The notes under the pieces were generated by a model, which saw only the letters and a list, made by a program, of their open reading frames with translations, searched no databases and was not told where the DNA came from. Below are positions 11,814-49,394 of a DNA stretch of 64,000 bases, in pieces. The DNA is from Enoplolaimus lenunculus. Taxonomy: Eukaryota. The stretch is from NCBI GenBank assembly GCA_030248215.1, contig JASANG010004131.1, positions 62,001 to 126,000 of the forward strand, read 5' to 3'. Each line of letters begins with the position of its first letter. Positions within the stretch are counted from its first letter, which is position 1. A program made the position numbers and the translations under genes.

Positions 11814-12141
<328 letters not shown>

Positions 12142-24954: not shown

Positions 24955-26089
24955 TATAATGGTATAAAAAACTCACAAGAGAAATTGAGCGAGAATCCAA
25001 ACGCCATCCTAGTGCCTAAGTGCCTTAATACAAAGTCTTAATTTTGAACCTTGTTTAAGACGAGGCCTTGGTCAGGCATGATGGCGTTCCCATTGGACAA
25101 GCCAGTTTGCTCATTAGAGATATATGCCCCGGATCTTGTTTGGCACGAGTTCGAAGACGTCTGTTTAGTCGTGTTAACCGGGGTAGACTTGGCAAATATT
25201 GCTAAACATTTATTGTTCGCATTACAAAATACAAATTATCTATAATAGTACAAGGTGTTTTCGCTGTACTTGAGGCTGTTCGCGTTAACCATTTTATTAT
25301 CCAGAAACTAAAATTATTTTGCTTGAAAAGTGTGATTTTTTTTCGCAATCTTTGGGTAAGCAAAGCTTTGCAAGCGTTATTTGTTGGTTTTGCCAGATAT
25401 CAGTTGTCATTTAACCCACAAATGTAAACAGGTGTGTTGTTTGGGTTGTGACACTATTTGGTCGTCGTAATTATACGTACGTACTAGATTTGAACTAACA
25501 CAGAATTTAAAAATTTTTTACTAGGATATTGGGTTTAGTACACTACTGTCATAACAGGCCTACGAACACGATTGATTGTCTAAACCTATTTCTTTTCTTA
25601 TGAATGTTTTAAGTATGGGCTTAAGCCGAAGCCTTAACTTTATATTTGGGGGGAGGGAGTGTAAGCCTTTCTGAGCGAAAGTCTAAGCCTTAACATTAAA
25701 TCTGAACGAAAAGTGTATGCCTTTTTGAGCCTAAGGGGTAACTTTAATTTTGGACGACAAGGATAAAATTGCGCTTAGCTTATCGGTCGCTTATATGTAA
25801 GTGCGAGTAGCAGCCTTCGTCAGAAATTTCTCGACCTGCCACTGTTTCAATTACACGGATGTTAACTTTAAATTTTATTTCAATTTGAAGTGAAACTTTT
25901 CATTTTGAATTATTTTCTATTTTCAGCGTTTAACGTATTATGTAGAGTAAATTTTTGCAACGAAACGTTATTCAAACTTAAAAGGTCAAACCTTATAAAA
26001 CCGTTCAACCGAGACATTTTGCTCAACAATTCGTGTCGTATCAGTAAACATCGTTCACAACAAGTGCCTCTCAGCTACTCTTAGGGAGC

Positions 26090-26651
26090 ATGGATCCCTC
26101 GCTTTGCCGTCAACCAGGGGGTCCACTCGATGGAGACGACTCATGCAGCTCAACAGCAGTGTATCCAGTGCCGCCTGACAGTGGATATTTTTCACCGTTT
26201 ACCCCTCAAACTCAAGGAGCGAACAACAATTCACCAACGACAAGTTCAACGACATCCAGTTCAACTACAACGGAACCGGAAATATTCAACTTTGAGCATA
26301 TTCAAAATTCGCATCCGCTTCCGGAAAAATGTGTCAGTTACGACGAATCTGCGGCAGCGGTGGTTTCCGCTCAAATTGGACCAACAAAGACACCAAAACA
26401 GCTGGATATGAGCCAAAGTGCAGTGTATTTACGGCGTCGAAAATCACGGAGCGCTCCTGATATTCCCAGTGGAACAGTTTCAACTCGAATGGCGAGAAAG
26501 CAATCGTCGAATGGCGACGCTCAGATGCATACAAGCGTCAAAGATGCTCAACGAACAACAGCCATGGATGTGCCACATCAACAATTCGCTCAACGTCAGT
26601 GGAAAATTGCACCGAATCGCGAACAGCCTAATATGGTGTCTAACGCTTCAG
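26090..26651 (+). CDS. Gene A coding exon 1: BH3-only, BIM-like pro-apoptotic protein (N-terminal disordered regulatory region)
   Basis: ATG at 26090 in a 204-codon ORF. Donor CAG|GTACGA after 26651 (562 nt, phase 1). Encodes VPPDSGYFSP (26168-26197), PEIFNFE (26276-26296) and RRRKSRSAP (26432-26458). The first two motifs recur in the 49394 minus-strand ORF. An upstream acceptor TTTTCAG| at 25926 suggests the exon starts in 5'UTR. Confidence 0.85.
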
Positions 26652-26700
26652 GTACGAGTGAGCTTTGTACGCTAAGCCAACAACAGCAGGGCTGTCTCGG

Positions 26701-26869
26701 CTGAAACGTAGCCAAGGAGGGGCCGGGGGGGCTCAGCCCTCCTCTTGAAAATTTTTTGCCCCCCCCCAAAAAATTTTTTTTCAACCTTGCTTGTAAGTCA
26801 CTGAAAACCCTTAAACGCCCCTTTGAAAAGGGTTAACCCCCCTAGCAAGGTGAGCTGGCTACGAGCCTG
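26701..26869. mobile_element. hAT-type MITE in the intron after gene A coding exon 1
   Basis: CTGAAACGTAGCCA...TGGCTACGAGCCTG, TSD TGTCTCGG/TGTCTCGT. Confidence 0.85.
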
Positions 26870-29800
26870 TGTCTCGTTCAAAAAGTGAACCCTGAGACCG
26901 AGATTCAACTGCTGACACCGTGACCTCACATCCCCCTGCATGAGAGTTTACATGTGTAATTCAGTGCATTATGTCCATATTGCAGCAGTGTATACAACTG
27001 GGTACGTTCTGTCTACAAAAGAATGTATGCAACGCGTGTGGCGTTTTTGGCCAGCGCCCCCTTCTTCATATCTGACGGTCAAGGTTGCCTAATTGAAGAA
27101 AATCAGCTGTAAATCTGTGGTGGGGGGCACATGTAAATGTTCCACTTATATTCCTGATCAATTGATGCGTTTCTCGAAAAATGTATGTGTGACAATCTAC
27201 CCCCGCCCCCTTTCTCCCTCAAATCAAGGGCGTCTGGCCAAAACCAAACGTACGCTGATGGTACATTTTGTGCCATGTACTAGCGTATCAATTGCACACT
27301 CTTCTACAAGACAGACACCATCGAGTGTTGGTGGAACAAATATAAAATCAGTTATCACGGAATCAACCGTTTGTTGGAGTCAAACTGAAGGCTGTATAAT
27401 TTAAAATTATCCATTTTAAGGTGAAAGTTGCGTCTGCTGAAATGCGCCTGGTTATCACACGACCTATTAATATACCTACTGACGAATTTGTGTCAAAATT
27501 ATTTTTAAATTTATACTAAACAATAATTTCAGTTCGCTGAACGTTATGTTTTTGTAAACTTTTAGTTTCATTTTAAAATTTTCAATTCTGTCCCAGTCCA
27601 AGTTTGCAGTAATTTAATCATAATTTCGTTACTGTCTGCGCTTAAACTAATATTTAAATGTGGTATCGAAAGCGTTATCTCGAGACTGTTTTTAATTTTA
27701 TTATTATTATTATTATTATTATCATTGTTGTTATTATTATTATTATTGTAAGCGACTAAAGTTTATCACGCAATTCCCTTGAGCGACTACTGGCAAAAAT
27801 TTGTTGTTAGACTCGTGAGGGCCTGCCTCGGTGTAGAAGAGTGAGATGGACAGTTCGTATAGAAAATTTACTCAAGGTTATTGTGTTGAAATTATTGACA
27901 CAAATTGTGTAATAAGTCAAGATATATAAATATATATAATATATATAATATATATATACATATATATGTATGTTTATATACGAAATCGTACGTAGTAATA
28001 ATTTCATGATTGCATATGTACAGAAGTGGTTAAGATATTTTTGTAAATGCGAACGAAACATGTGGAAATTGCAAATTGCAGAAAACAATACGACACAACG
28101 AGTGTTAAGGTGGAAATTGAGAAATTGAAATGAAATTCTACATTAAGAACATTAAAAAATTTAGGTCTTTAATTTGATTCGATAATTTTTTGCTGGTATA
28201 GGCTGCAAAAACGACTTTTAGGGCGAAAACAACATAAGCTAGGGCGTGTTCAGCGTACCCTGACTTGCGGCTGGGACATTTCCCCACGTTCCTCTCAACA
28301 CCGACTGCTAATCATGCCCTCAAACCATAGTAATTACTTGTGGTGTTGACGGAAAATGATTCTAGTTGTGTCCAAAATCCTTTATGAGAATTGAATATAT
28401 TGGGGGGGTCATTGCGCTTTGACTGTTACAAAGTTGTACATAATTTTTATTGAAAATAACGAAAATTAACTAATAAGTTTTGCAGTCATCGGCGGATCCG
28501 GGAAATTTCTCACGGGGGGAAGCGAGCAATTTATTAATCTTTAAGAATCTTTCGATGGAATAAATAAATGCATTTTTAGTATTAAATGTTAATACAAAAT
28601 TTTGGTTTTGAATTTTTGACGCGTTGTTGGCTTGACACAGGCTTTCAGCCAGTGCTGTTTACACTATTATTAATAAAGTCGACAAAGTTGCAAAAGTAAA
28701 TTTGTAAAAAATATTAATTTTTTGATAACGTAGATTTGATTTGTATGCCATATTTGATCGATATTGGAAGATGCGACCCGCCCCATGTTCGTGTTGTCGT
28801 CGAATTTGAACGTTTTTGCGACGAAAGGAAGTTTTGAGAAACTAATTTGAAAATTTTGAAAAGCCCAGCTCGTTCGCGCGGATGGTAATGAGGTCATTGA
28901 ATTTGTGTTGCTTAGAGAATGATGACGGAAAAAAATCTCGACAGGAGGTCGAATGTTTACTATTGGGGAAATGAGTATTACACTAGTGATTGCGAGGGGG
29001 TTAATTTGTGTTTTGGAAAGTGGATGAGGGAAGAATAGAAAATAGGCAGTGAAATTGAAAATTAGATATACTTCATTTAGTACAGGGTGTTAAGGTAGAA
29101 TATGTATATATCATGGCCGTTGGAAAGGTTGGGCACGCTATGATCGTAGTCCGTATAATTTTGTGCAGATTTAGAACACTAGATATCATGATTTAATATA
29201 TCAGGGTTCCACCATAATTGCTGTTCCGGCCTGAACTTCTGCAGAAATTCAATTCCTGTTCGGTTCCTGCATTTAAAGATGCAGCAACGGGAATTTTTAC
29301 GGGTTTGTGTCAAATTGTCCATAGGAACCGAAATTTTTTACGGTTTTGTGTCAAATTATTTATAATCATTTAAATATTCAAAACTTTGTCGGTGAAAAAT
29401 TGTCGTTTCAAAACGAGTATTTTTGCAATTAGTTCAATCTTGTTTAATAAACTGTTTCTGATGTGTTTTCGCAAAACATGATTGTGAAACAGCTCAAATT
29501 TTGTTTAATCCATTTTGTGGCAAATTTTTCTCCAACAGTAATTTGGTGATGAAAATTGTTTCAAATTCCGGTTCCTGTTTAGGTTTCTGCATAGAAATTC
29601 AATTCCTGTTTCTGTTCCGGCAAAATTTAGTTCCAGTTGTACAATTTTTTTTGCTTGAATCACATTGCAGTCACCTAATCAAAGGATTTGAAAAATTTTG
29701 GGATCGATATTAGTTTTTTTGGATATCTAAGAGGGATCTAATCCAACTGAAAATTGTTTGGAAACCTTCGATACTGGGTGATGTGATTAAATGTGTTTCA

Positions 29801-29929
29801 GGCAAGAAAAATATACGAAGGACTTTTATTTGATCGTACAAGGCGGGGAGATTCTATAAATCGCGGAGACCTTTTTAATTGTTTTTCTTACGCTGCAAGA
29901 ATATTCGACTGTTGTCAATTTTATTTTAG

Positions 29930-30342
29930 GAATCACTCGACATTATGATACCGGCTCGCAAACGGAAGACTCGTCAGAAGATGATGCTATGGTTATGCAA
30001 TCGTGTGCCAAATATTTAAATGATGATGATGCGAAAAGAACCAGCCAACCAAATACGGATGACGTCAGCATTGACCAATTAGATTCCGTTCCGACGCAGT
30101 CGTCAGCAGCCAATAGAAATGCGCGATTTGTGGTGTCTTCCAACGATGCAAATTACAGTCATCAACAGTATCAACCAACTCATGAAGAACATCAAACATA
30201 TTTAAGAGTCGGGCGTCAACTTGCGGCAATTGGTGATGAGATTGATCGACGCATGGGTGGTGCTACTCACTACGACGGTCGAACGCCTGGATTTCAAGAT
30301 GCGGTGTTGTTCTGGGAAGCACTGGATCGGGTGTTGTTGAGG
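29930..30342 (+). CDS. Gene A coding exon 2: LC8-type motif plus BH3 domain
   Basis: Acceptor TTTTATTTTAG|GA at 29929/29930 completes the phase-1 codon (G+GA=Gly). Reads GITRHYDTGSQTEDSSEDDAMVMQ...LRVGRQLAAIGDEIDRRMG...FWEALDRVLLR. Perfect donor AGG|GTAAGT after 30342 (phase 0). Confidence 0.88.
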
Positions 30343-30522
30343 GTAAGTGAGCATAAGATTTCAGGGTTTTATGTATCGGGACTGTGCTTGGAACCGAGCC
30401 AGCGTTGGCGGGCCTAGGTTAAGCATCCAAAGAATTTTTTTGGGGGATAGTCGTAGATTTTGGATTTCTTAGAGGTTGAAAGTTTTACACGAAATGAACT
30501 CTGTGTCATCTTTGGCTACAGG

Positions 30523-30882
30523 CAGGGTGCAAATGGAATTACAATTTACCGGAACCGGAAGCGGAATTTGAAAATTTTACCAGAACCGGAACCGGAAAGT
30601 GACAAATGCATTTCACCAAAAATTTTATAATCTTATTTTTTGCTCTATTATTTGTGAAATAACCTTAGTCGAACATAGGTATTTATTTTATTTGTTGTAT
30701 TTTAGATTTTCATCATCGACTCTGAAGTGAAATCCACCATCAATGGCTTATATTCGGAGTACAGGTGGCTTTCAAAAGAGATTCTTAAAAATTAGCAAAG
30801 TTAAGAAAACGGCCAAATTATAACAATGGAATTTTTAAATCCGGTAAAAATTTACCGGCACCGGAATTCCGGTTGCACCCTG
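30523..30882. mobile_element. hAT-type MITE (CAGGGTGCAACCGGA family, ACCGGA subterminal repeats)
   Basis: CAGGGTGCAA...GGTTGCACCCTG, perfect TSD GCTACAGG. Confidence 0.85.
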
Positions 30883-32834
30883 GCTACAGGCATGGATATG
30901 TATGTTGTAACATGATGTAATTTGATTGTTATAAGAATTGCTAACTTGTGGTGAAACCCGCTAAAGGTTGCAGTGTCCTATGCGGCTTTGCAAGAGGGAA
31001 AGTCGCTTTAATCTAACAGGCAACAATTGCTTATTCGATCTTGCTTTCATCTGTACTTTGTATTACTTTCATTTTTACAACCACATTCATATATTATACA
31101 CTAGAGAGCTGGAATTTAATTAAACGCTTTGCATAGAATTAATATCAAGAAGTCTACACGCTGACTGAATTACCTGTTACTATGCCGGCGGGCCAGGTGG
31201 AATTTGTGGGCCAATCAGCGAAGTGAAAAAGAAAACCTTGGTTATGTAATTCTATTTCGAAATAGCCAGTGATTGGCTGGTTCATATCAAAATATCACGG
31301 CCAAGTGTTCGTGACAGTTTTGGCCTTTTTAATATCGGTCCTATTTACTGATTTGATTGGACCACCCGTAGAAAGCGCACACCTGTCCCGGTAGCCGGCT
31401 CAACCTGCTAAATGGAAAGCCAAATCAACTCTACGAATGGCATGCGGTTGAAACAACAAGCTTACACGGGTTGAACTTTTCTAGGCGGGCGGGATAGACC
31501 TTGTCCAGCGGCTTTCAGCTTCGCCCCTAGCTCGTCCTCCAGTTACAGGGTCAGATTAAGCCGTTTAGTGCAAGCATAGCAAGTACTATCAGTAGCAGTA
31601 TTTTGATTCAAAGCTTCGCTCAAATCAATTTGAGCATCTGATTAGATATTCGCTCAGTTCAATAGAATTCGACACATAATCTAAATGATATTCACACCAT
31701 GATAACTGCGACGACAATATCCAGCCACGCCTTTATGGCCGTGAGCGTTTAGTAAACACGTGAATGAGTGTAGATAAGCGAAGCGAGATGCCTAGTATTC
31801 AATATTTAATTAGGTTTTAATAAAGCAACTATGGGCATTTGGCGGTTGATCGTTGGCCAGAATTACAGAGAACAAGCTTACTTTAAGCCACCATTGCGTA
31901 AGCTTATCTAAAGGTGCTTGTATATTACTATTTACATCAAATACTAGCACGATCCATATAGGATTTATATTGCGGTTGAAGTTGGGATAAATTAAAAGTT
32001 TTCAAATTGTATATAATACACATGAGGGTGCAACCGGAGGTGAACAATGCCGGAGCCGGAGGTCAACGAAAGTTGCCGGAGCCGGAGGTGAGGCGAAATT
32101 AGGTAGTAACGATGACGGTTAGCTGCTAGGCAATTTTAGCCAATATCTGCCATATGTTGTTAATTTGTTTTGATTTTACGCTAATTTTCTGCGAAATTTT
32201 TGAAATTCTTTCCTGAAAATTATCACAACAGTAAAACGAAACGCGATTGAATTTTTGCAAGAATTCCAGCAGGAACACGAATTCCGGCTGAACCCTGGTA
32301 TATATTCATATAGTTATTGATATATTAGAACTGTCCCGGGGCTGGTGTATTATTGATCAGCTCAAACTCAAAAATACCACTTTCGATGCGTCTGCAGAGT
32401 TGAGTTGAATAGGTTATGTCGTTTCTCAGTACCCCGATGAACCGATGGTAAATTTTGTTTCGTATTTGTTGTTTAACTATGAGATTCTAAGTGCTACTAG
32501 CAAACGAGATTGAGCTGCAATGCGCCGCCAAGCCGTGACATGGCACAAAATAGAAAGATTACTCAGTTTAGAGTGAATCTCGACAACAGCTTGTTGCAAC
32601 TACGTAGGATTATCGTTTTGATTGCTAAATTTTAAGGCGGGTGGTAGAAAGTTTTAACAATAGAGAGACAGAGAGACTGGTAAATTATTAATTAAACAAA
32701 GCTGCTTAGCTGCGCCAAACTATTGTGTTTGGCAACATTTTGCTAACTATTAAATTTAAGGTTTCAGTCAGTAGGCTTGTGGTTGTGTTTGAGATGCTTC
32801 GATCTTGGACTGTTGGACGTTGCTTGTATTGTTG

Positions 32835-33005
32835 CAGACACGTAGCCAGCTTAGATTGCTAAGAGGGGTAAAAAAATTTTCAGGGGGGCATACAAAAGTT
32901 TTCAATGACATACAACAAGCAAGGGTGAAAGTTTTCTAGGGTGGAATAAGTGTTTTGCGGGGGGGACTCAGCCATCCTTCCTGCGCCCCCTTTGCTACGG
33001 GCCGG
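32835..33005. mobile_element. hAT-type MITE (CAGGCCCGTAGCCA family)
   Basis: TIRs, TSD TATTGTTG/CATTGTTG. Confidence 0.8.
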
Positions 33006-33598
33006 CATTGTTGCTTAGTCAACAGATTAATTAATTTAGTTAATTTAATTCTGCGTGATTGAAATTTAAAATGTAACTAAGTGTTTTATGATCAAGAATA
33101 GATTGAGTGCCAACACGGAGTTGTAACGCAGTTGGTGTAGAGTTGGAGTTTAATAATTATTTCACTTTTATAATTCCAAACAACTCGACTTACGATAGTT
33201 TGTCACAAGTGTAGCTGTGGACGGCTTAGCTTAATCCCAAACGTTGCGTGCGTGACAAACAGACCCGTAGCCAGCTCGCCTGGCTCGGGGCGCGAAAATT
33301 ATTTCAAGAGACGCATTCAAGGGTTTTCGATGAGTTACAAGCAAGGTTGAAAACTTTCTAGTCGAAGCCAAGTGGACGCGTTGTTCGGGCGAAGAAATGA
33401 CGTGATACCGTTTCTTATTTTTGTTCACTCTGTAATGTCTGATAATATGTCGAACTAAAATCACATACCAAGTGTTTTGCGCATCAAACAATACCTTTGA
33501 TTCAACGTGGAACTAAGGTCGATACAAGATAATATTGTTCGGTATTGAATACTGCATTTTGAATGCAGTGCAATTATATATTAATGTTTTTGTTCCAG

Positions 33599-33637
33599 GT
33601 TATATACGAATTTGGCAATTGGTTGATTCAATTTTGA
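33599..33637 (+). CDS. Gene A probable terminal coding exon (VIYEFGNWLIQF*), completing a hydrophobic/amphipathic C-terminal tail
   Basis: Acceptor TTTTTGTTCCAG|GTT at 33598/33599. Phase-0 reading gives 12 codons then TGA (33635-33637), mirroring the last exon of gene B. AATAAA at 34837 downstream. Short exon, so less certain. Confidence 0.6.
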   Translation, partial: VIYEFGNWLIQF

Positions 33638-36453
33638 CGCTCAAAATGATCGTAAAATACGTTTTCAAACGAAAAATGCTACAAACCAGTAACCAAGTCG
33701 CCGCCGTGGGCTCCGTTTGCCAGTTTTGGACTTTTACACGATTTTCAATAGCGAATGTTCAATTTAAACGGCTGAATTGTTAGTTTACTGCAACGTAACT
33801 TGAATTCATGAGTTAAAGGTTATGGAGGTAGTGGTATAGTGGTGTTAGTTGGTATTTTTTTTTCGGAAACGAATCGTAACCAATTTGGCCTTGATGTCAA
33901 GTCAGGCCCGTTGCCAGCTCACCTTGCTATGGGGGAGCTAAAAAATTTTCAGGAGGGGCATTCAAGGGTTTTTAATGACTTGCAAGTAAGGTTGGAAATT
34001 TTCTAGCGGTAAGGGGGGCAAAATTATTCCAGGGGGGTTGAGCATCTCTAGCCCCTTCCCTTGGCTACGGGCCGGGATCAAATTTGTAGGTGGTGGATCG
34101 TAAATTTATGTTGCCCGCAGTTGAAAATTAGTAGTCATGTTAACTTCGAGTTTAGCTGGTAGGTGCAAGTTGCGTTACAGCAATGTGTAACAAAGTATGC
34201 TGTTGTACACATTTCTCACAGTTTTCGTAATTTGCAGATTTTGGCATTGATTAGGCTTAGGATTCGGCTTCAGCTTAAGTTTGCGACGAAACGTGTGCAA
34301 ATGTCGCAAAGCGATATCTTTATTCTGACGTTTTGTTATGTGGCAAGTATGTTTGGGGCTTTAACGTAAAATATCCATGTATATCATCTGGTGGTAAACT
34401 CAGTTAACAATATTGTGGTAATTTATATGTAAGCTTATACGGTTTGTGTGGGCGATTTTTTACCACAAATTTAAAAAGTTAGCTTAACACGTGCTATAGG
34501 TTTAGGAATGTGCTCACAGAACTATCTGTGTAAAGATGCGACAAGCTTGAATTTTGATTGATGTAATATTTAATTTTGAGTCACAAGTTACAAGCCAGGG
34601 ACCCCCCGTCCGTTATAGAAAGATCTTCGCGTGCCTCTGCTAAAAATTTGGTCATTTGCATTAAAAGAATTCTATGTTTGAAAATTGTTTTTTTCGTTGC
34701 CATTTCTAGATATCTTGTCGCACCGTATACTAACAGCTTTCAGGTGTGGGCTTACCTAAGCATGTGTCGGTTAGTCTTGAAATTTATGATATCTGTAATT
34801 AGCATTAGCACGGCTAGTTAGATTTTTTAATTCTGCAATAAATAACGAGAATAGCAGTTTTAGTTTTCGTTTACCTATTATTACTAATATGGATATTTTG
34901 CGAAGATTGAATTTGATATTTTGTAATCGTATATATATATATGCTTAACAATTGTAAATCGTGAATTTTAGTTTGACCAGAAACACGTCATAGACGAAGC
35001 TAGTATTCAATTTCGGTAGTTCATGGCCTTGCTTAAGTTTGTTTCGAAAGTAGCGGGCGAAATTTTATTTACAACTTTAGCATCAAATAGGTTATGTTAA
35101 AAAGTGTTCCTGTTTTCGTTTGGTCAAAAAATTTTCTGACAGAGACGACATGTACCACCAAGTATACGCCATTAAGCCCAAGTTACTTTAAGGGGCGTCC
35201 AGGTTTCTGGTAGGTCTATAAAAGAGTAGGTTTATAGTCTGAATTACATTTTTTGTTTAGGTTTAGGCTTAAGCTTAGGCTTAGGAATACGCTTATACGC
35301 CTCTTAAAATAACATTGGCCTGAAACATATGACTTTGAAGAATGTGTTATAATGTGGTGGTGGCGGAATGATAAGGATACTGTCACTTGCTGGATTTACG
35401 TTAAATATTTTCAGTCGTTATAGTTTTCAGTGTCTTTTTTACCTATGCTGAATTTGATTAATATAATACACGTTGGCTTGCCAGCGCCCAGCAAACAAGC
35501 AATTTTAGCATTTTTGACAATTAAAAAGTGAACGTTATAAAATTTTTGTGTCATTTTTTAACTTTTTCCGTCACTCGAAAAAATTATTACGTCACTTTAG
35601 AACTTTTCCAATTAATTAAACATTTATTTAGCGAAATTGACCGGAAACTTAAATGAGTGGCATTGTGAGTAACGCTGATTGGCAGACAGGTATCGGTCTG
35701 GTTTCAAAAAATATAATTATATATAAACTAGCTGGCAATTTGTGTATGGAGACTAAAATTGTGCTAAAATGTTTGCTTACGGCAGTAAAGGTACTTTCAA
35801 AACGGCGTATGCTTACACTAAACATATACTGCATAAAAAAGTTGTTCGTACGATCGTTTGTGATTTTTGTCGAAATATTTTTGGCCATTCTTTAATTGGT
35901 AACACTAGAATTTTCCGTCGAAATTTGTACATAACATATGGATGTGCCGAATAATCGGCATCGGCATCGGTTCGGCATCGACAAAACTTCAAAATAAGAA
36001 TACGCATCGGCATCGGCAAAAATTTTGGTATCAGCACATCCCTAATATAAAGCGTAACACAATTTCATACTTTGTTTACTCCGTGTAAATCTGAGAATGA
36101 TATATTCCGTCAATAGCTTAGTTTATTGTTACTAGTTGTGGTTATTAGTTGCTTATCAGTTGCATTTGCCAGAAAAATTGTCGCTATCGCTCAGTAAATA
36201 ATGGTACGTAGGTTAGCTCAAATTTGGGTTTGGTTTAGTCATAATAAGCCTTATTTCATTAATATTATTAGTAATTAGAAAATATAATGAAATTTCCATA
36301 GTAACACATACTAACGTTTTTATTATTATGTTTTTGTATTAATGCATTCCATTTGCATTTTCCATGTCTTTTGTTGTTATATTTACGTAGTTTAGATTTT
36401 CTGTAATATTGGTTTCAAATAGCGTTAAATTTTGTTTGGTTATAGACGTTTTA

Positions 36454-36595
36454 GGGTGGCACTATACTCGACGTCCGGCGCCGTCCGTCACCGTTCGTGC
36501 CATACGTTATGGCGCCGTGCGGTGACGGATGGCACCGCACGGTTGATGCACGGTGACGGACAGCGCCGGACGTCAACAAAAGTATAGCGTAGCCC
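36454..36595. mobile_element. GC-rich palindromic Harbinger-like MITE
   Basis: TTA|GGGTGGCACTATAC...GACGTCCGGCGCCGTCCGTCACC...GTATAGCGTAGCCC|TAA. Confidence 0.75.
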
Positions 36596-37220
36596 TAATT
36601 GGTCCCTGGGTTTTTTTGGAATAAATATTCCGTACAACTAAAGCGATCCTGTGTAAAGTTATATATTCGGACCTGCCCATTAAGATTTAGGTTACCAATA
36701 TACCTTTTAGACTTTGACACTGGAAAGCGTAGCCTATAGCATTACGTTTAGGCTTACATTTCGGTTTACGCTTAGACTTAGGTTCAGACGTAGGCTCAGT
36801 GGGCAGGAACTTGTTATCATGGATCGCAAACGCAGACTTCCAAGTAAGTAAACCATTTCTTATAAGACTTGCACTATTTTTTCCAGTTCGCTTTTACAGT
36901 TGTATGATAATTTTTCAATTAGATGTATAATCAAATTATTGAATTTCAAGGTTAATTTCAGTTGGTTCCACATTGACCCTACCGGTCTTCAATATTTTAC
37001 CGGATCTTGTACACGACCCGTTACGTTTAATGTTAAGGTTTAGGCTTAGGTAATCGTTTTAGTAAACCTAATCGTGGGCCTAAACCTGTAGGGGAAGTGT
37101 ACAAAAGCGTTTTGCATTGCATAAATCGTTTTGTTTGTACTAAGAACGTTTTCTATCTTTTAATGCGTTAAACTGACGCTTACCATTTGCATATTATTGT
37201 TATAGTTCAATGCGTATTTC

Positions 37221-37371
37221 GGCCAATGTAAAGAACAGGGGCGGAACAGTAGTATAAGCATTTTCTTAAGGTTAAGTCTCCGTCTAAGCCATGCAAAAAT
37301 AGTCAAGAGCTTAAGCTTACTCTATTCCAGTGCCACAGAAAAACGTTCCGCTCCTGATCGTTACATTAGCC
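37221..37371. mobile_element. TTAGGC-family MITE
   Basis: GGCCAATGTAAAG...TTACATTAGCC, TSD CGTATTTC/CATATTTC. Confidence 0.8.
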
Positions 37372-37989
37372 CATATTTCCAAATTCAGAGTTATATTATC
37401 TCTCATTTCCTGGCATTTATTACATGGAAAATTGTATATCTGTATAATAGAATATAGAAGGTAAATGTTATCATGAGGGCATTCGGAGCATTTTTTTGGT
37501 GAAATTTTTATTTTTTATGTAATTTAGGTTCAAAATATTGCTTAATATTATGATTTTGAGACTTAAAAATGTTGGCGAGCAGGGTCGTAGCTAGGAATTT
37601 AGTTACGGAAGACATACGGTCCTGCAAAAAAATTTGACCTCTAAAGATCCACAAGATTATTCTTATATCTTTTGGAGATGCTTTTATGTTGTAAATTTTA
37701 GTGGGATATTTATCCAGTCTTTTCCTTTCCCTCGCCTGTTCTCTTATTGTGGTGAAAATGTCAAGTCTAAGCCTAATCCTAGGATACCTATAGTTTAAAT
37801 GATGTACGAAATTGTGCGCCCCTTATCGTAACATGTGCCCTCAGTTGTGTACATATATGTATTTTTTCTTTTTTGGATTCACAAATAATTCTTTCTATTA
37901 TTAAACGGTTGTTAACTCAAAGTTTTAGCTGAATTTGGGCTTTTAAGCTGATTTTAGCAGTTTTTATATGTCAGGTTGGAGATATACTG

Positions 37990-38196
37990 CACTGCAAAAA
38001 ATGGTGAGTGAAATTGACTCTCCGAAGCAGGCTTTTCCTGACTACACAAACTGAGTCAAAATTGGACTCCGGCAGAGTTGAAATTGATTCACTGAATCGT
38101 TCAGTGAGTCGAAGGCGGAGTCGAATTTGACTCAGTATGTGTAGTCAGGAAAAGCCTATTTCAGAGGGCCAATTTCACTCACCATTTTTTGCAGTG
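37990..38196. mobile_element. Palindromic CACTG-ended MITE
   Basis: Same family as 4417, flanked by TG/TG. Confidence 0.85.
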
Positions 38197-40113
38197 TGAG
38201 CTTTCATGTTTGAAACGCTATGACGAACCTACTCAGCATACGAAATCGTATCTAAAATACAAAACGGTTTTAGTAATGTTAGCCAACGTATAGAACAGGT
38301 CAGTATCACTAGTAAAGCGTACGAATGAGCTAATATACCCCTAAGCCTAAACCGAAACATTTGTCAAATCATAAAGCTTACGGTTTCCACACAGACAATA
38401 AAATATATGTTTATACGTCATATTTCTAAAATTCAATAATTTTCCATCAAACATCGTCAAAAAAATTACTAATTTATTGCACTTGCGGTGATTTTAAGTG
38501 TTTTTTTAGAAATTAACATCTATTAAAAAGTGAAAGATCTTAAAACCAGTGTAAAACAAAATTGCAATTTATCTTGTTAATTTACCGTTTATACGCTGAA
38601 AAACTCATTATCCGTTATCATAAAGCGTAATCTTTTATGATTTAATGCTATTTTTTTGTTTCTTCTTTCGTTAAAAATTCACTAAAAATTAAGGTTTAAA
38701 AAAACTATGACGCTAACATAAAACGACCACCGGCAACAGTTCGCTATCAATTTTGGACGATTTGAACGTAAATTTACGAATAACACTTCATTTTTCAAAA
38801 AAGTCATAACCTTTGGTCATTAAAATGTTCACCGTGAGCAAAACCAGCTCAGGGCACAACAGAGAGGTGTCGACTGGAGTCTTTAACATTTTTAAACTAC
38901 AACTTCTGTGTAGAATTTCATGCTCAAATTGCATTCAGTACTTCAGCCGCTTCGTTTGCGTGGTTTCACTATTGGTCCCATGTTGTTGGACCCATTGCTG
39001 TCCCGTTTTTTTACCAGCATTCGAAATACACGTCTAGTTTAGTATTTGTCAGTTTTTAATAACCCGTAATAATTTTGAATTTTTATTCTTTTTGTTTTTG
39101 TGCCGCTTCTACACCGTTTTATCAGATAGTAAGTTCAACTCCAGTGAGATGCGCTTGTTACCGTACAAAATTATCGAATTCATTTTTTGTCAACGTTTGT
39201 CTAAAAAGTATAAGTTTCAAGGCTGTACACATCATTTCTATTCACATGCAGAACAGTAGAGGGACAGAAACAATGTATGCTGGCTTTAGGTGCTTAAGGT
39301 ACACTTTAGTCATAGCAAAAATTAAAATCGTCAGATGTTAAATGTATACATCTCGCGTGTTAGGCAAAAAAACGTTTATTCTTAAAACCAACTAGCATTC
39401 TACAACTTCTATGACCAATCTAGACAATAACATTTAATCATATATGACAAGGTTTTGACGCTGTTTAATTTTTAATGAACTATTTTAAAGACAAAATGTC
39501 GGTATATAAAGTGTGAACAGCTCATAGTTACCATATCGTGTGATTTTCAAGCGATCTTTAGTAAATATTTAAATTTGATTTGTCAGAAAAAAAAACAATT
39601 TTTGACATAAGGCTAAACTCAAGATGATAAATTAAAATTGTTTCTTTTTTGTGACCTTCGGGTCAACATTTGACGCCGAAAAAAAACACCAGATTGCCAG
39701 CGAGTCAGAAAGACCGCAAAGTTGAGAATTCCAAATTTAGACGATTTTTAAACTTTAGAATGTATTTATTTGATTTAACAATTTAAACCACAAATTAGGT
39801 GACACTTTTGCTTGCCAGATTTGATTGATAGTAATGGGTTGCCAATATTGCTCTAGCATGCGTCAATTTCAGGTTTAAACCAAATTTCCAATTGTCGCGT
39901 TGAAAACTATTTGCGCATTCATTGACACTTCCGGAAAGTGTTAATATTAATCTAATTTTTTTCCAATTGCTTAAAAATAAAATACGACACAAAATCAAGT
40001 TAAACCAAAGGTGTTAGAAACCGTGTCACATTCATCAAACCACCAGCACCAGTTTGTGGTAACAGCTCAGCTTGGTTTTAAAAGTTTACCAAATACGTTT
40101 AATTGAAAATACC

Positions 40114-40221
<108 letters not shown>

Positions 40222-40471
40222 TTCGAAATTTCTAAGACATGAAATCGCTTCATGCGCACTTGTCATAGGAAGATTTTGAATTATGTAAATGACCTTAAAT
40301 GTTAATAGAAGCAACCTTCACCTTAAGATTATGGTTAAGCTTGTAACTAGAGAGAAAAATGTGCCAGAGTCGAATAACTTTTAACTCGTTGTTTTCAATT
40401 TATATTGACTTTAGGAAACTGAGTTTCTCGCTTTCTAACAAGTACAATAATCCAAATGAAATTGCGTTTCC

Positions 40472-40662
40472 GGCCAATGTAAAAAACAGGTGCCGAACAG
40501 TATTATAAACATATTTCTAAGCCTAAACCTATGCCTAAGCGTAAAAATGAGTCTATTTTTAAGCCTAAATCTAAGCTAAGTAAAAATATTAGTGTAATGC
40601 TTAAGCTTACTCTTTTCTAGTCCCACAGAAAAACGTTGCACCCGCTGATCTTTATATGAGCC
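40472..40662. mobile_element. TTAGGC-family MITE
   Basis: GGCCAATGTAAA...TTTATATGAGCC, TSD GCGTTTCC/GCGTTTTC. Confidence 0.8.
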
Positions 40663-41322
40663 GCGTTTTCTATATTTGCATGGACTAAATTTAAACTTTT
40701 GTGCAAAGTAATAAATAATTAAAATTTCAGCTTGCGCATCATTGTTAGGATAAATATAAACACTGGATGTTTACTGTTTTAAATAATATATTTTCATACG
40801 AAACAGCGATGTATCTACTTGAGACAGTGCTACTACTTGAGCGATATAATGCGAGGAATTATATTTCAACTAAAAATAGACGAACAACACGTATAGACAA
40901 TTGTAAAATTAATCTGATTTGTCAAGTCTGAAATGGTTATTGACACTGCACGTTGCGGTTTGTGTTTTTAAAATTTCAAGTTTTCAAACGTCCGTAGCTG
41001 GAACTGCTGCTACCCCGTAGTTGTTTAAATTTCAATTCATGTTTACGCTTTTTATGTTGCCGATTGAAATTAAGTATATATTGTCCAGTTAAACACTTGA
41101 CACGGTGGTTGAACTTTCGTTTACAGTTTAGGTCAATTGAGGACAATAAGTCGCGAGGTGCAACCGTATATGAAAAGGACCGGAGCCGAGGAGACTTGCA
41201 ACAAGCGGAACTGGAACCGGATGTAATGTAAAATTTTTGACAATCAAAATGATGGTGAATCTGCTAACTTTTACAGTCTAATCTGCTGTTGGTTAAAAAT
41301 TGTAGTCAAGTTTTTCTTTGAC

Positions 41323-41706
41323 AAATTTGTGCGACTAAAGCTTTCAAAATTGCGCCCCCCCCCCCAAGTAAAAATAAAACAAGTTCACTGGCAAACACAT
41401 CTTTTATAAGCATGCGATAACATTCGCTACTGAAATTGTCAAAATTTCCGGCAACAATTCTGACCGGTGCCGAAGATTGATTTTCTGCCACAGCCGGACC
41501 CAACCCTTCGGTTGTAAATTTGTGCGACTAAAGCTTTCAAAATTGCCCCCCCCCCAAGTAAAAATAAAACAAGTTCACTGGCAAACACATCTTTTATAAG
41601 CATGCGATAAAATTCGATACTGGAATTGTCAAAATTTCCGGCAACAATTCTGACCGGTGCCGAAGATTGATTTTCTGCCACAGCCGGATCCAACCCTCCG
41701 GTTGTA
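41323..41706. repeat. Tandem duplication, 2 x ~193 bp
   Basis: AAATTTGTGCGACTAAAG... starts at 41323 and 41516, near-identical. Confidence 0.9.
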
Positions 41707-41970
41707 CAATGCAATGTTACAAGTTTCAAATGCTGCATGACCAAACAAATATTATCGATATCCATGAGAAACTATGGGGCTTCGGAACAGGGTTGCCTTG
41801 CAGCAAGAGTGCGTCGCAGTCACCCAGATTTTCCAAAGTAACATATCGCATGAAGATTTAATGCTAAAATTGCATTTGGTTTCTCACTCGCTTTGACTCA
41901 CGATGAATCATCCACTGTTGTGTCTTTAGCTGCAGATAAATAAAGTAAACACGTTATTGTTATATTTTGC

Positions 41971-42148
41971 AGCCCATGTGAAACTCAGGGACAGAACGTT
42001 TTTCTGTGGGACCAGAATAGAGTACTTAAGCTTAAAAGCTTTAGACTAGTTTTTTTGCTTGGCTTAGGCTTTGGAATAAACTCATTCATACGCTTAGGCT
42101 TAGTATGGCGCTTATAATACTGTCCCGCCCATGTTCTTTATATTGACC
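41971..42148. mobile_element. TTAGGC-family MITE
   Basis: AGCCCATGTG...TATATTGACC, perfect TSD TATTTTGC. Confidence 0.85.
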
Positions 42149-43146
42149 TATTTTGCTCTAATCCCTCTCCTATTAAAAGACTGCAACAAAGTGACACGAA
42201 TAACTCAAATTCGTTGTTCAATTGATGCGTTGCTGTTCGTAAAAATTTAAAATCTTAAAATACAACAAATCAACTTGATGATATATGTTCAGTTTAAAAT
42301 CTAATTTTTAAACAATCAATTAATTACCGCAATTCAGACAGAACTCTGTATCACGCAACACATACACGCGAACAAAATAATGCAAGCTTGCTTTTTCATC
42401 TTTAATACTTACCTTAATAACCCTATCACCAATAATACCTTTCTTCAAGGCAGACAAGACGCAAATAGTCACGCGTCGACACACGTTTACCCGAAGGTCA
42501 AAACAATATTTATTTAGTACAATAAGTTATTGCATTTACAGTGGACAAGATGAGGTGTGGTAGGCTCTAAAAATTGCAAATTTTGCACTATTTATGAAAA
42601 GTTTACTAAATATCAAATATGTTTTTAAATTTCAAATTTCATACGCAATATCGTTTTTCGAGGCTGAAAATTAACCATTAATTTTATAGTATGCAATGGG
42701 TACAAATTGGTCATTAAATTGTTAAGTTGTGCAATGCTGTTATTGATTGCAGACTACAGCTGTGGTTGAAAACTTTCACCTTTCTAAAGCCACTTTTACG
42801 CTTCGCCTCAAAGTTTTCGCAATTTTCAGATTTTATCAGCCTTAGGACGTGGCTTAGGCTTACGTTTCAGCTTGTGGATGGAAGCTGCACAATCTGAAAG
42901 CTCCTGCAAAGATTAATTAAATTGAGGCGAAAAATAAATTATGTATCTAATTTGTTTTTCTTAATATGTGATAGGCTGCGGCTTAATCTTCCAACTGGGA
43001 TTAAATATTGCATATAATTAGTACAGTTTAAAAATTTTACCATAACGATTTTTATTTAGCACCCTTATTTATATGAAACAAGAACTATTGAGAAAAGCAT
43101 TATAAACTTTAAAGGGTCATGTTCGTACGATTGACCTCTCCCCATA

Positions 43147-43354
43147 CACTGCAAAAAATGGTGAGTCAAGTCGGCTCACTCCGAAATAGGCTTTTCGAGA
43201 CTGCACAAACTGAGTCAAATTTGACTCCGTCAAAATTAAACGTGCGACTCAGTGAGTCAAATTTGACTCTGACGGAACCGATTTTACTCAGTTTGTGCAG
43301 TCCCGAAAGGCCTATTTCACAGATCGCCAGTTTGACTCATCATTTTTTACAGTG
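43147..43354. mobile_element. Palindromic CACTG-ended MITE
   Basis: Same family as 4417, flanked by TA/TA. Confidence 0.85.
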
Positions 43355-46300
43355 TACAGTATCATTAATTATATATATCTCTAATTCACAGCTAAACTCG
43401 AAACATTTAACTTTTACTTATTATCACAAGTGTTTGCTTTAACAGTTTGAATTTGGCATATCAAGGTCGACAATTGTGCTCATGTTTACAATTGATTTAG
43501 TGTATTAATATTATGGGTTACGTCGCGAAAACCCATTTAACTACGCTTCAAATTTCAATACTGAAGATTTTAGAAAATTATCAAATGTTTATCGACAGTG
43601 TGACAACGGCGAAACACCATTGAAACTGTCGAGCGTTTAGTGTAGAGAAATTGCTCATAAAATATACTATTTGCAGTTTACAATTTTAATTTGAAAGTAA
43701 AAATTTAATTTTAAACACCGTGTTCAGTGACGGTAGTACCATCCGGTATCCAGTTGACTTCACTAAACACAACACTTAAAATATTCAGACTGAATAAGCG
43801 ACAGGTTGAAGATAATATAATTATATGTTTTAGTTTGCAGACAAAAATTGACTACCCAGTCATGGAACTGAAAGAAGTATTTTTAACAGCGGATATAGTG
43901 AACAATGTTTAGATGCAGCTAAAATTATACTGTCAAATTCGAAAGCAGGCAAGCATTTAAATTAAAGCTTCGTAATGGTTTTAAAACAGGGGTGTGATTT
44001 TTGTTAAAATATTGCGGGTGCAAAAAAGCCTCATGAAGTATGCGTTGTTAGTAGGAAAAGGTTTCATAGATCGGTAACCAAGTTAATAGTATACATACAT
44101 ACATACGTACATATATATGTATATATGTATGTATATACATATATCGAGACCAAATTCACTTTAGGGGCTTAAGCTAAGAAAAGGTTTTCCCAACAATTAC
44201 ACCGCTGTTAGTTAGAACACCAACATTATTTTATCTGTCGCTAAAATTGTTATCTTATTTAAAACCGATAAAAGTTCTTTGCCTAAAATATCAATCGATG
44301 TACAGATTATTATTTAAATTTTATTCTTAATTGATTTTAAGTACTCATGGATGTCAAAATGTTTTTGAGGAAAGACAGCAAATTGAAATTAGGAATGAAT
44401 TGCGATGCCTATTTTTGTGTTCGAGGACTTGCAAATTTTGTTCGCTTAAAAAATCGAACCTCGCTTGTTGATAATAAAACAGGTGTTAAGTTTACGTAGA
44501 ATTAGAATTTGCCAAAAAACCTGGTAATTCTTAATTATAGAACAACAAGAAGCACAGCCGAATCAATGCAATTACATGCATTGCTCCGCATTACATCAGT
44601 GAGGACTAACATGCAAAAGTGTCATAGAAGATACTTTGCTACGAGTAAAAATTTGAACCAATGTATAGAACAGGGCCGGAACAGCAGTATAAGCATAGTT
44701 CTAAGTTTCTAAGCGTATGCATAAACGTAAGCATAAGCCTATAATTAAACCTAAGCAAAGCAAAAATAGTCTAAAACTTAAGCTTACTCTATTGCGGTCC
44801 CGCAGCCAAACGGTCCGCCTCTGATCTATCCATGGGCTAAAAATTACAATAACATAATGAAAAAATCGCTGTTTTTTGTAAAAAAATTTACTAGTCATAC
44901 TCATAAGAAAAAACTCAAAGACACAGACAGTTTAATACTTTATACTCAAATATGACAAAAATATTGCTTAAAGCTTAATATAGATCTGAAACCAAGATTA
45001 ACGTTAGCAAAACATCAACACTGGGTGGGTATTCAGCTAATATTAATTAAATACTAAACACTAAACATTATATTGAGGTAAAAACCTTGAAATTTTTTAT
45101 TTTGAACGAAAAATCAAAAATGCTGTAAACGACTACTATTGACGCTCGGCATAAAGGTGTCAAATGTTGCTGTCATATCAATGTGGTCTTCGTGTAAAAG
45201 ACAATTATGCATATTCCTAAGCCTAAGCTTAAGTCTAAGCCTAAGCGTAAAGATGAGCCTATTTCTAAGCCTAAGCAAAAAAGTCAGTCTAAAGCTTATT
45301 AACTTGACACTATTGCCGCCATGCAGGAAAACGTTCCTGCACTGTTCTATACATGGGCCAGACAATTTCCAACGAATATAGAAATTGTGCCTAATAAATA
45401 AAAGCGAAATCTCAAAACAATGAAGCGTAATGTTTCACGGTTGAGTTTGAAACAGTCTATCGGTATCACTTACATAAAAACAATTAGTACAATCAAGAGT
45501 GATTCTTGACAAGAGTGTGCAATTCATGGCGTCCGGCATGGTATAAAATGTACCACCGGGTGTTGCGTTGTTGGCCGACCCCACCCCCCGGTTAGAGGGT
45601 GTTGGTATTACATGAGTATTTCTAAACTAAACTATAAGGGAAGCATGTCTGATGCTGCATACATAAAGTGTCATGGTTCGCATCGGTTGTACCGCTCTAA
45701 ATAATGGGGGGTAGAGCAAAAACGCAACGTGTGCCTGCTATAGTTTTTTCTACACTGAATATGCACAGTTGCACACTCTTGTTAAATAGCGATTATCCAC
45801 TCTTGGTATTATCAACAGTGGATGATCACATTTACACAAGACTGTGCAACTGGACACATTCTGTGTACAATAGAATGTACCCAGTGCGCGTTGCGTTTTT
45901 AAATTTTCCTGATACGCTTCAGGTTTACTACATGTGATATCGACCCCCCTCCAAAATGATGGAGGTACAGCAAAAACACAACGAGTGCTAGAACATTTTG
46001 TACTACGCACCACCTAACTGGTTGCACACTCTTGTCAACAAGTGATCATCCACTCTTGGTACAATCAACCGTGAAAATTTCACAAGCATAAAAGTATATA
46101 TACTCATTCATTATCTTCACTGTTCACCGTCTGTTTTGTTTTTTAATCACTGAACATTTGACTTGTTCTCACTTCTGTTCAAAGTTGAAATGACTCATAA
46201 ATTCAACAAATATCGCACAATCAACCCTGAATCTTTGGCTATCAAATCGCCAATTTTGAACTATTTTACTGGTGATTGCAGCATTGCAAGATCTTTGCGT

Positions 46301-46442
46301 CTGAACCAGCAGAACGACTATAAATCGTTGCCGACGAAAGTATCTGAAACAATAACTGGTAACTCCGAGATAAGGCATCGTCAGCAATGTCCTACCGTTG
46401 GCTTTATTCCCACGCTTTGATCAATTGAGTTTACGCAGGTCT

Positions 46443-46632
46443 GGCATCATGCACAGATCAAGGGTGGAGCGTTTTTCTCCAGGACAGCAATAGAGTAAGC
46501 CTAAGCTTTAGACTAATTTTTGTTTAGGCTTAGGCTTAGGTATAAACTCATTTTTATGCTTAGACTTAGGTTTAAGGTTCTGCTTAGGAATATGCTTATA
46601 CTACTGTTACGGTCCTGTTGTATACATTGGCC
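46443..46632. mobile_element. TTAGGC-family MITE
   Basis: Family ends and (TTAGGC)n, TSD GCAGGTCT/GCAGTTCT. Confidence 0.8.
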
Positions 46633-47682
46633 GCAGTTCTGTAGTAGTCTATATACATACAGCGCATAGCAAAAAATGTACTGAAACCTGATTGGAGCTC
46701 GTTTAATGTTTTCAGGTTTCGCCTACTCTGATTGGAAGTTTCGCCTGTTGCAAAACGAAATGTCTTTCGCTGGTTAATTGAATATTATCCTTACCGGCTG
46801 ACATGCGGTAGCTTTATTCGCAAATAGCATTTGATTGGGTTATCAGTCAGGATCGCAATAACCATTCAGCGACGCTCCATATTAGCTGAAACAAAAGTAG
46901 TTAAGTCATTATACAAAGCAACTGTTCAAGCATGTGTCAACAAGGAACGCAATTTATATGCTAGTCGTCGTAGTTTGTGATGCTGAGTCGAATGGTGTTA
47001 AATTTTCTGCTAAATGCCAGAATAGTTATTTGACCATTACTCGTGAACCAGTGGTTGGTTTGACGGCAGACCTATAACACCATTGTGTTCAGCTGCCAAA
47101 ATTGCGTTGAACTGCATATATGCTGTTAAATTGTTTCCGTAAAATAATTTTTTCGATCTCAAGGGGGCGTTATGATTTCAAACCTTGCCAGAATTCAAAA
47201 TTTTATCTGTGGAATGATGAGGGCAGACCATGAGACAAACTATAGAAAACAAAACTAATTCGTATTATACTTGAGACAGAATATCAAATATATAAAAATG
47301 AATATTTAACTGTGACGCTTTGTCTATAAAAGCTTTTAAGAAGCCATATATTAATTTAAAAGTATAAAGCACACGTGCAACTATACTAGTCTCGTTATTG
47401 TAACATTTGATTAAATACAGATTTAAGCTAAATATTTTTAATAAGCTTTGCTGCTTAGCCGTTTTCATGCTTGAATTCATGTTTAGCAAACGACATCAAC
47501 AACATGTTTCTAATAGTAATCTGATTTTTCAGGTTTAGGGTCAAAACTTTTAGTCTAAGAAGTTCTAATGAAAGCATTCATAATTTCTCCTGAAGTATTT
47601 TCAGTTTAAAATTGTTGAATATAAATATAACTAGTCTGCCAGCTTTGCGCAAAGCACAAAAATTTCTTTGCAAACTTTCTTT

Positions 47683-47793
47683 TCATAGAACAATTACGTG
47701 TATTATTGAAGAAATTATTGTAAACAAAGTAAATGCTGGAAAGTTGCCCAAAATACGTATGTATGGCGTTCTAGCTTTAATATATACATTTAC
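47683..47793 (-). CDS. Gene B terminal coding exon with C-terminal transmembrane-like tail anchor
   Basis: Acceptor TTTTTGCAG| at 47794/47793 after a 154-nt intron. Phase-0 reading VNVYIKARTPYIRILGNFPAFTLFTIISSIIHVIVL then TGA (47685-47683). Confidence 0.72.
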   Translation of the reverse strand, partial: VNVYIKARTPYIRILGNFPAFTLFTIISSIIHVIVL

Positions 47794-47947
47794 CTGCAAA
47801 AAACTTTATAAAACGGTTGTTGCGCACTCCACATTTGTTTTTAAATTGTCCAGATTTCAGCTTAACTTAAGCTTAGGTTTAAACTCAAAATTAAGCTTAG
47901 GGTAAAGTGTGTGAAGGAAATTGTACGATTACCGCAGATCGACTTAC

Positions 47948-48252
47948 CTTTAGACAAATTTTCGCAATCATTGTCAACCGACCGGTTTGCAATCGGACAA
48001 CAAGTTTCGGTTGGGTGTGTCGAGTTTGTTTCAACTCAATTTCGTCACCAATTTGAGCCAAGCGACGTCCAATATTTCGACATACTGTTAACGATGGGGG
48101 AGGTGAGACAGTTGCACGGGTTTCAACGGTAGTTTGAAAGCGAGTCGCGTTGCAAAATGTGTGAGTTGAAAGCTCGTTTGGAAAGAATGTTGAGTCACAA
48201 CCGTGGCTAGTAGATGCTGAATGAGGTGACTGAGATAGCATTTGGTTAGGTT
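47948..48252 (-). CDS. Gene B coding exon 2 with BH3 domain
   Basis: Acceptor TTTTTGTTTTAG|AA at 48253/48252 completes the phase-1 codon (A+AA=Lys). Reads KPNQMLSQ...TVCRNIGRRLAQIGDEIELKQ...AKICLK. Perfect donor AAG|GTAAGT after 47948 (phase 0). Confidence 0.88.
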
Positions 48253-48778
48253 CTAAAACAAAAATATGCAATAAAACCATTTTCCCGTCAAAAACAAGAA
48301 GCAAAGCCTGTTCTGCAGCCAGAGTCGACTTATACAGTCAGACGCTTATCTTGTGATGGGTCATCCACGTTAAAATGCAGGTCATGCTATTCACTAACTG
48401 CATGCATTAAAACTGTAATTGTTAGTAACTTAAATTTATCAAGTACCCGCCAATTTTGAAACGCAAACCCCTATTTTAATTAACTTTTCTGATTTAGATA
48501 TCGTCAATCTTAATTCCTCGCTGCGTTATAACGCAAAACAAGCTCAAAAGCAATCAAATAATAAGTCTGTTTGCACATAATTGTCTAAACCAGGTCTTAG
48601 ACTAACAATTTGTAAACGTAAGTATTTAGTTTTAATTAGCTATAGCGAAATGTTTTTTGAGCGAAAACCGCAATTAGCATTAATAGATTTTGAGCTGGGA
48701 AACTAGTGCAAGTTTCTTAATATTTAAAATGTACCTTAACTACAAATTAATAAATCTTATATAATTTTTTAGACTTAC

Positions 48779-49394
48779 TTTGGTTTGGACTGATATTTTT
48801 CGCCGAGTTCGAGTTGCTGTTTTGCAAGTAACGTTCTTTTGTCTTTATCTGCATTATCTGAGGCTCTGCAGCTTTGTGTGTGTTCCAGCATCTGCCTCGC
48901 GGTCCCGAAAAATCAGGCAGACATTTCAATTGATGCATACTGTTCGATTTCAGGCGTTTACTATCCGGCGTGTTTGGCACAGCTGTAGCGAGACACGGCG
49001 CCGAAGTTGAAAACGTTGAATAATTTTGGTATTTGGCCGGCAAATAGGGTTTCAAATCGTCAAAAGCGCATGAGCTTCGTTCGAACTCAGGATCAGGCAA
49101 TAGCTCATACTCGCTGCTGGTGCTAATACTGCTTGGGTAATTGCTCGATGTTGCGAAAGGATGCAAAATTGATTTGTGACAGTTGGTTGAAACTAAATAA
49201 AATTCATCTTCGCTGTCGAATGTAAATATTTCAGGATGGGTCGGTTGACTGTAAGACAAGCCAATGCTCTTACTACCGGTTGAATAGTTCTTGGATAACG
49301 TTTTTGTGGGCGAAAAATATCCGCTATCCGGTGGGACAAAGCTTGATAGAGAACATCGGTTAGGTGATGACGTCAACGGTGACGAATGTGACAT
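48779..49394 (-). CDS. Gene B coding exon 1: BH3-only, BIM-like protein, paralogue of gene A
   Basis: ATG at 49394 (ACCATCATG) in a 215-codon ORF. Donor A|GTAAGT after 48779 (616 nt, phase 1, same as gene A). Encodes VPPDSGYFSP (49337-49308), PEIFTFD (49235-49215) and STSAP. Confidence 0.85.

Follow-up and report, generated by a model that had tools for sequence, protein, structure and literature searches.

Two facing genes on a 64-kb stretch of Enoplolaimus lenunculus DNA that probably encode BH3-only apoptosis proteins

BH3-only proteins decide the start of mitochondrial apoptosis, and their genes are poorly catalogued outside vertebrates, where conservation is restricted to a short motif and their history is therefore hard to trace. 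The question considered here is whether two genes, A and B, located on opposite strands of a 64-kb stretch of Enoplolaimus lenunculus DNA (contig JASANG010004131.1, positions 62,001 to 126,000; hereafter the window, numbered from its first letter) belong to this class, and which of the known members they resemble. The original prediction, made from the letters of the DNA, had read them as a locally duplicated pair of BIM-like BH3-only genes. Based on the analyses presented here, the products of A and B are quite probably disordered proteins of the BH3-only kind, which would bind pro-survival Bcl-2 proteins and thereby set off mitochondrial apoptosis, and the two genes are likely to be members of the known BH3-only class that work like BIM, without strictly being BIM orthologues. 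A literature search made without the species name found no published description of the pair.

The reading frames and junction signals of the two genes are established. All coordinates held when the models were rebuilt from those predicted (Table 1), giving two three-exon genes on opposite strands whose products have 337 (A, plus strand) and 343 (B, minus strand) amino acids. As had been claimed, both genes have introns of phase 1 and then phase 0. The junctions of the original prediction are the only ones that yield GT-AG borders at all four introns; the donor is GTAAGT in three of these, and the acceptors have T-rich tracts. Both frames end in TGA (at 33635 in A and at 47685-47683 in B), and the stops, predicted to lie ~14 kb apart, are separated by 14,045 bases. 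Exons 1 and 2 of both genes have a GC content of 44-48% and are free of repeats, whereas the window as a whole has 37% GC and repeats over 21% of its length. It should be noted that the models are weakest at the last exons, which are predicted only. They are favoured by the observation that, in both genes, the last two residues of exon 2 are Leu and a basic one, and the first of exon 3 is Val. If exon 2 were read through into the intron, both proteins would stop within 30 residues and would still be without BH1 and BH2.

The predicted BH3 cores are present in both genes and follow the canonical pattern (hydrophobic-small-xx-L-xx-hydrophobic-G-D-acidic-hydrophobic). A strict BH3 pattern, written with the motif already known, has two matches in the six frames of the window, one in each exon 2, and none in 100 simulated windows. 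Among solved structures, gene A is best matched by a BAK BH3 peptide (E 9.3e-4), with 30 of the 31 listed sequences being BAK and one Bik, while the best matches of gene B are BID peptides, at E 0.15 and weaker. BAK and BID peptides are also retrieved by a profile made of the two BH3 sequences (E 4.5e-5). The BH3 segments of BAK and BID are the best sequence matches of the A and B helix, but the likeness is limited to ~20 residues, and no Bcl-2 fold follows it in either gene. All 10 clusters listed by the ESM Atlas for exon 2 of gene A bear a BH3 (scores 0.75-0.89), and they comprise a BAK fragment, BMF, PUMA, PXT1, BIM, BIK and NOXA; we take this as a lead only. AlphaFold, given this exon alone as a single sequence, predicts coil except for a single confident helix that covers the BH3 (predicted local distance difference test, pLDDT, ~84), and a Foldseek search with the model returned 0 matches.

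The paralogy of A and B is likewise established. Their local protein alignment scores 95, against 41.4 +/- 6.6 for shuffled sequences (maximum 73; 0 of 2000 reach 95), and their longest common word has 10 residues, compared with at most 6 in 300 shuffles. BLASTP joins the first exons at E 2e-7 (21 of 43 residues identical) and the second exons at E 5e-5, in the BH3 region only. BLASTN finds no match between the loci, and the duplication is therefore old. The claim of a local duplication stands as far as paralogy is concerned, but the event is an old one that left no similarity at the DNA level, and A and B are best described, from their proteins, as old paralogues. The VPPDSGYFSP block is identical in 10 of 10 residues, as had been noticed, and yet 7 of its 10 codons differ between the genes, every change being silent. 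The predicted PEIFxF motif is also present in both. The three blocks common to both genes have 24 identical residues, of which 15 are encoded by different codons, and 3 residues that differ; this silent divergence reads as the pattern left by selection on the protein. The SxSAP motif, proposed as another shared element, does occur in both genes (at residue 119 in A and 129 in B), but the positions do not align, and we rejected it as weak evidence of homology, shared words of four or more letters being found in 248 of 300 shuffles. An old pair of paralogues is unusually informative, since the parts that both copies have retained show what is important, in this case the BH3, the ten-residue degron-like block and the unexplained PEIFxF motif.

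Both genes contain DSGYFS within the ten-residue block, a motif resembling the beta-TrCP degron, whose consensus is DSGxxS. In BIM the letters in the region of Ser93/94/98 are SSGYFS, and the spacing of these serines is that of D-S-G-Y-F-S in A and B. BIM is degraded via beta-TrCP after phosphorylation of Ser93/94/98 (PMC4695108; bioRxiv 10.1101/2025.08.14.670414), and DEPTOR, another beta-TrCP substrate, carries SSGYFS (PMC8191632). Gene A has two further candidate sites. One is a basic stretch that closes with SRSAP, a five-letter word also present at the Akt site Ser136 of BAD (PMC4706443). In composition shuffles, the exact word has a chance of 0.0014 and a looser pattern one of 0.024, both having been chosen post hoc. 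The stretch differs from BAD in that Lys replaces Arg three residues before the Ser and in that the site lies ~160 residues from the BH3; this basic site is not conserved in gene B, and neither gene has a Pfam BAD match. The other is an LC8-like word, GSQT with Asp at position -4. Of two GSQT peptides reported against LC8, one is a weak binder and one a non-binder (PMC6607443), and loose LC8 words number 20 in the six frames against 19.2 expected, and hence are uninformative alone. Compared with the TQT site by which BIM binds LC8, that of A is imperfect, and B has no LC8-like site.

The layout of both genes recalls BIM, which has three coding exons, with the BH3 in the middle one and the tail in the last (PMC4695108). 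The human BIM intron after c.394 is of phase 1 (PMC12104613). Its last intron would be of phase 0, because the alternative tails described in the supplement of PMC4695108, which replace residue 167 onward, have different first residues. Like BIM, A and B have a large first coding exon that contains the degron (degron-like in A and B), the BH3 in the second, a hydrophobic tail in a third exon (predicted in A and B) that starts with Val, and phases 1 then 0. The tail, which had been predicted for both proteins, is clear in B (maximum Kyte-Doolittle value over 19 residues 2.15) but only moderate in A (1.04). The label BIM-like is therefore supported by how the genes are laid out and by the degron, though not by the BH3, which reads LRRIGDEFN in BIM and is nearest to that of BAK in A and of BID in B, nor by the BAD-like site of A or the Pfam models of BIM (Bim_N and Bclx_interact), BMF, BAD and PUMA, which match neither gene. 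BIM is also shorter (198 amino acids, versus 337 for A and 343 for B).

With respect to length, A and B are closer to the BH3-only candidates of the echinoderms Strongylocentrotus purpuratus (S. purpuratus; 373 amino acids) and A. planci (350 amino acids). By description, these are also alike in predicted disorder and in having the BH3 on one exon (PMC8998228); a paired convergent arrangement is not mentioned in the available text of that paper, and the comparison is by description only. The same 2022 survey describes probable BH3-only proteins in deuterostomes including echinoderms, but not in urochordates, and a 2013 mussel paper states that none were detected in bivalves (PMC3634015). The accessible parts of PMC8282340 and PMC3945527 hold nothing on invertebrate BH3-only genes.

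If A and B work like BIM, the biology of BIM and BAD suggests the following course. Kinases would phosphorylate DSGYFS, and SCF-beta-TrCP would hold the proteins at low levels. With weaker survival signals or stronger transcription, the protein would build up and use its C-terminal tail to dock on the outer membrane of mitochondria. Its BH3 would then fold as a helix into the groove of a protein of the Bcl-2/Bcl-xL/Mcl-1 type, and Bax/Bak would be set free. A second brake may exist in gene A, with phosphorylation of the Akt type and binding of 14-3-3 at SRSAP and perhaps binding of LC8. Gene B lacks it, and the two copies would therefore answer different signals.

Several results weigh against the assignment of A and B to this class, or against parts of it. 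The second intron lies at most 19 residues after the start of the BH3 in BIM and 41-44 residues after it in A and B, and because this is about twice as far, the phase match with BIM may be due to chance. This difference, together with the convergent origin of BH3 motifs, is the reason for not filing A and B as BIM orthologues. The two proteins are far longer than the human BH3-only proteins, which span 54-198 amino acids, and are similar in this respect to the echinoderm candidates. The Pfam models of BIM, BMF, BAD and PUMA do not match, Pfam BID matches gene B below the Pfam cut-off (E 0.0017), and no Pfam family reaches the cut-off for A or B. For gene B, the ESM Atlas returned nothing useful with exon 1, the single-sequence AlphaFold model of exon 2 alone is of low confidence (mean pLDDT 48), with a helix at the BH3, and FoldIndex predicts disorder for 47% of the protein, compared with 81% of A. 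The third exons of both genes have an intron-like GC content of 28-29%; intron 2 of gene A contains 10 other acceptor candidates by an ad hoc score, and on the same score the exon-3 acceptor of gene B reaches only 5.0, lowered by a nearby AG.

The searches for relatives point in the same direction. Their queries were gene A or short two-gene profiles, gene B not being searched on its own. The exon-1 frame of gene A yielded 523 candidates, none at E<=1; its exon 2, compared with longer proteins, yielded 192, none at E<=10; its exon 1 gave 0 matches at E<=0.001 among 1.84 billion representatives; and a profile of both N-terminal blocks yielded 680 candidates, none at E<=10. Conservation across species thus lacks support, although relatives may have been missed, since fast-evolving disordered proteins can escape such searches. 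A pattern scan of viral contigs passed 0 of 52 matches. In metagenomes, 1 of 142 pattern matches passed (L001); being a short frame on a bacterial-type contig, with a long frame on the other strand, it was put down to chance. Against solved structures, the N-terminal block matched an RNA polymerase subunit and a Fab at E>=0.8 only, and these were rejected.

BH3s are short linear motifs that arise by convergence, and biochemical proof is considered necessary for their assignment (PMC10107002), which also counts against the assignment. This convergence bears on the alternative that survives best, namely that A and B are true paralogues with a BH3 that does bind proteins of the Bcl-2 fold, but that their main role is not killing (mitochondrial signalling, autophagy or calcium control, for instance) or that their origin is independent of the BIM/BAD/BMF/PUMA line. 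Outside the three short blocks, A and B have no likeness to known proteins, and some invertebrate lines, such as the ascidians, are reported to be without caspase-9 and Apaf-1 (PMC10959488). However, the layout, intron phases, degron and tail all fit pro-death genes of the BIM type, and we regard this alternative as improbable.

A further question is whether the genes encode BH3-only or multi-domain proteins. In agreement with the original prediction, neither an NWGR-type word nor the looser WG[RK] occurs in the six frames of the window. The Pfam scan found no member of the Bcl-2 family among 281 of the 293 window frames of at least 55 amino acids (12 low-complexity frames were left out), nor among the frames of 28-54 amino acids between the BH3 exons (146 of 146 on the plus strand, 150 of 157 on the minus strand). 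The latter scan left out four frames at 30364-30664 and another three at 47609-47866; among these three, exon 3 of gene B was covered by a separate Pfam scan. None of the hits in either scan passed a curated cut-off. The absence of BH1, BH2, BH4 and a Bcl-2 fold holds within the window, for frames of at least 28 amino acids. In A and B themselves, Pfam, motif words and the exon-2 models gave no helical Bcl-2 fold with BH1 and BH2 after the BH3. Two GGWxxF words (56635, plus strand; 54966, minus strand) were not taken as BH2; they lie outside the span between the genes. That A and B are multi-motif proteins of the BAK or BID kind, with long N-terminal extensions and later exons that were missed, would agree with the nearest BH3 relatives and with the insecurity of the last exons, but in view of these scans, of the 14 kb left between two genes that face each other and of the ~270 Ser/Pro-rich residues ahead of the BH3, we consider it very improbable. 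That one copy is a decaying or untranscribed relic (more likely B, which is without the extra sites of A and has a weaker exon-3 acceptor by the ad hoc score and a less disorder-like composition), or that the exon joins are wrong, is hardly to be expected either, given frames open over 337 and 343 codons, consensus donors, the dominance of silent changes in the shared motifs and repeat-free exons 1 and 2 that stand out in GC content from a window 21% repeat-covered.

Returning to A and B as BH3-only proteins, the shared block suggests that regulated destruction as a means of controlling a death trigger, known from BIM, predates the vertebrates or evolved twice. A bolder proposal, which we put forward only tentatively and hold to be rather unlikely, is that a single pre-vertebrate BH3-only ancestor combined the beta-TrCP degron (BIM), Akt/14-3-3 (BAD) and LC8 (BIM/BMF) controls, of which gene A would keep all three and gene B the degron only. 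If this is true, VPPDSGYFSP and PEIFxF would serve as handles to find the family across invertebrates. The value of the locus is that an old pair exposes a constrained degron-like block and PEIFxF, that gene A mixes BIM-like and BAD-like control sites, and that the pair offers two peptides and three sites open to direct test.

Table 1. Coordinates of the exons and motifs of genes A and B, numbered from the first letter of the window
Feature	Position	Strand	Remarks
Gene A coding exon 1, aa 1-187	26090..26651	+	Ser/Thr/Pro-rich, predicted disordered; phase-1 donor; GC 48.4%, repeat-free
Gene A VPPDSGYFSP block	26168..26197	+	DSGxxS core (beta-TrCP degron-like)
Gene A PEIFxF motif	26276..26293	+	common to gene B
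Gene A basic stretch ending SRSAP	26432..26458	+	resembles the Akt site at Ser136 of BAD; 14-3-3 site candidate
Gene A coding exon 2, aa 188-325	29930..30342	+	LC8-like word, BH3, start of tail helix; phase-0 donor; GC 46.2%
Gene A DTGSQTE	29947..29967	+	weak candidate site for LC8 (dynein light chain)
Gene A BH3 motif, aa 281-293	30208..30246	+	
Gene A predicted last exon, 12 aa + stop	33599..33637	+	completes amphipathic/hydrophobic tail; weakest part of the model
Gene B coding exon 1, aa 1-205	48779..49394	-	phase-1 donor; GC 44.0%
Gene B VPPDSGYFSP block	49308..49337	-	degron-like
Gene B PEIFxF motif	49218..49235	-	
Gene B coding exon 2, aa 206-307	47948..48252	-	contains BH3; phase-0 donor; GC 44.6%
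Gene B BH3 motif, aa 266-278	48035..48073	-	
Gene B predicted last exon, 36 aa + stop	47683..47793	-	carries 19-residue hydrophobic tail anchor

Some signals were observed around the coding parts. A strong pyrimidine-rich acceptor lies at 25912-25926 on the plus strand, 163 bases upstream of the ATG of gene A, and suggests either a trans-splice site or a first exon that is untranslated and lies further 5'. With the candidate poly(A) signal at 34837 (plus strand), the 3' untranslated region of gene A would be ~1.2 kb long; with those at 47442 and 46818 (minus strand), that of gene B would be 0.25-0.9 kb. Several ATTTA words are present in the putative 3' untranslated regions of both genes.

The surroundings of the pair are poor in genes, with flanks of at least 26 kb and 14 kb: no other genes, tRNAs or Rfam families were recognised in the 64 kb, in which short exons could be missed. 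The observed/expected ratio of CpG is 1.04 across the window, a value that speaks against vertebrate DNA. A family resembling miniature inverted-repeat transposable elements consists of elements of 160-230 bp with terminal inverted repeats of ~22 bp and internal tandem TTAGGC/TTAGGT units; there are 10 paired copies at no more than 6 mismatches, for example at 53692-53921, 56341-56546, 60846-61028 and 10532-10731. The TTAGGC/TTAGGT hexamer forms 22 clusters in the window, and TTAGGC is also the nematode telomere unit. A long GTT/GCT trinucleotide array at 11815-12150 is a microsatellite with poly-Q, poly-N and poly-T frames and no sign of a gene. Finally, a tandem duplication of ~180 bp with near-identical copies lies between genes A and B (41330-41690), and a direct repeat of ~200 bp lies upstream of gene B (52395-52790).

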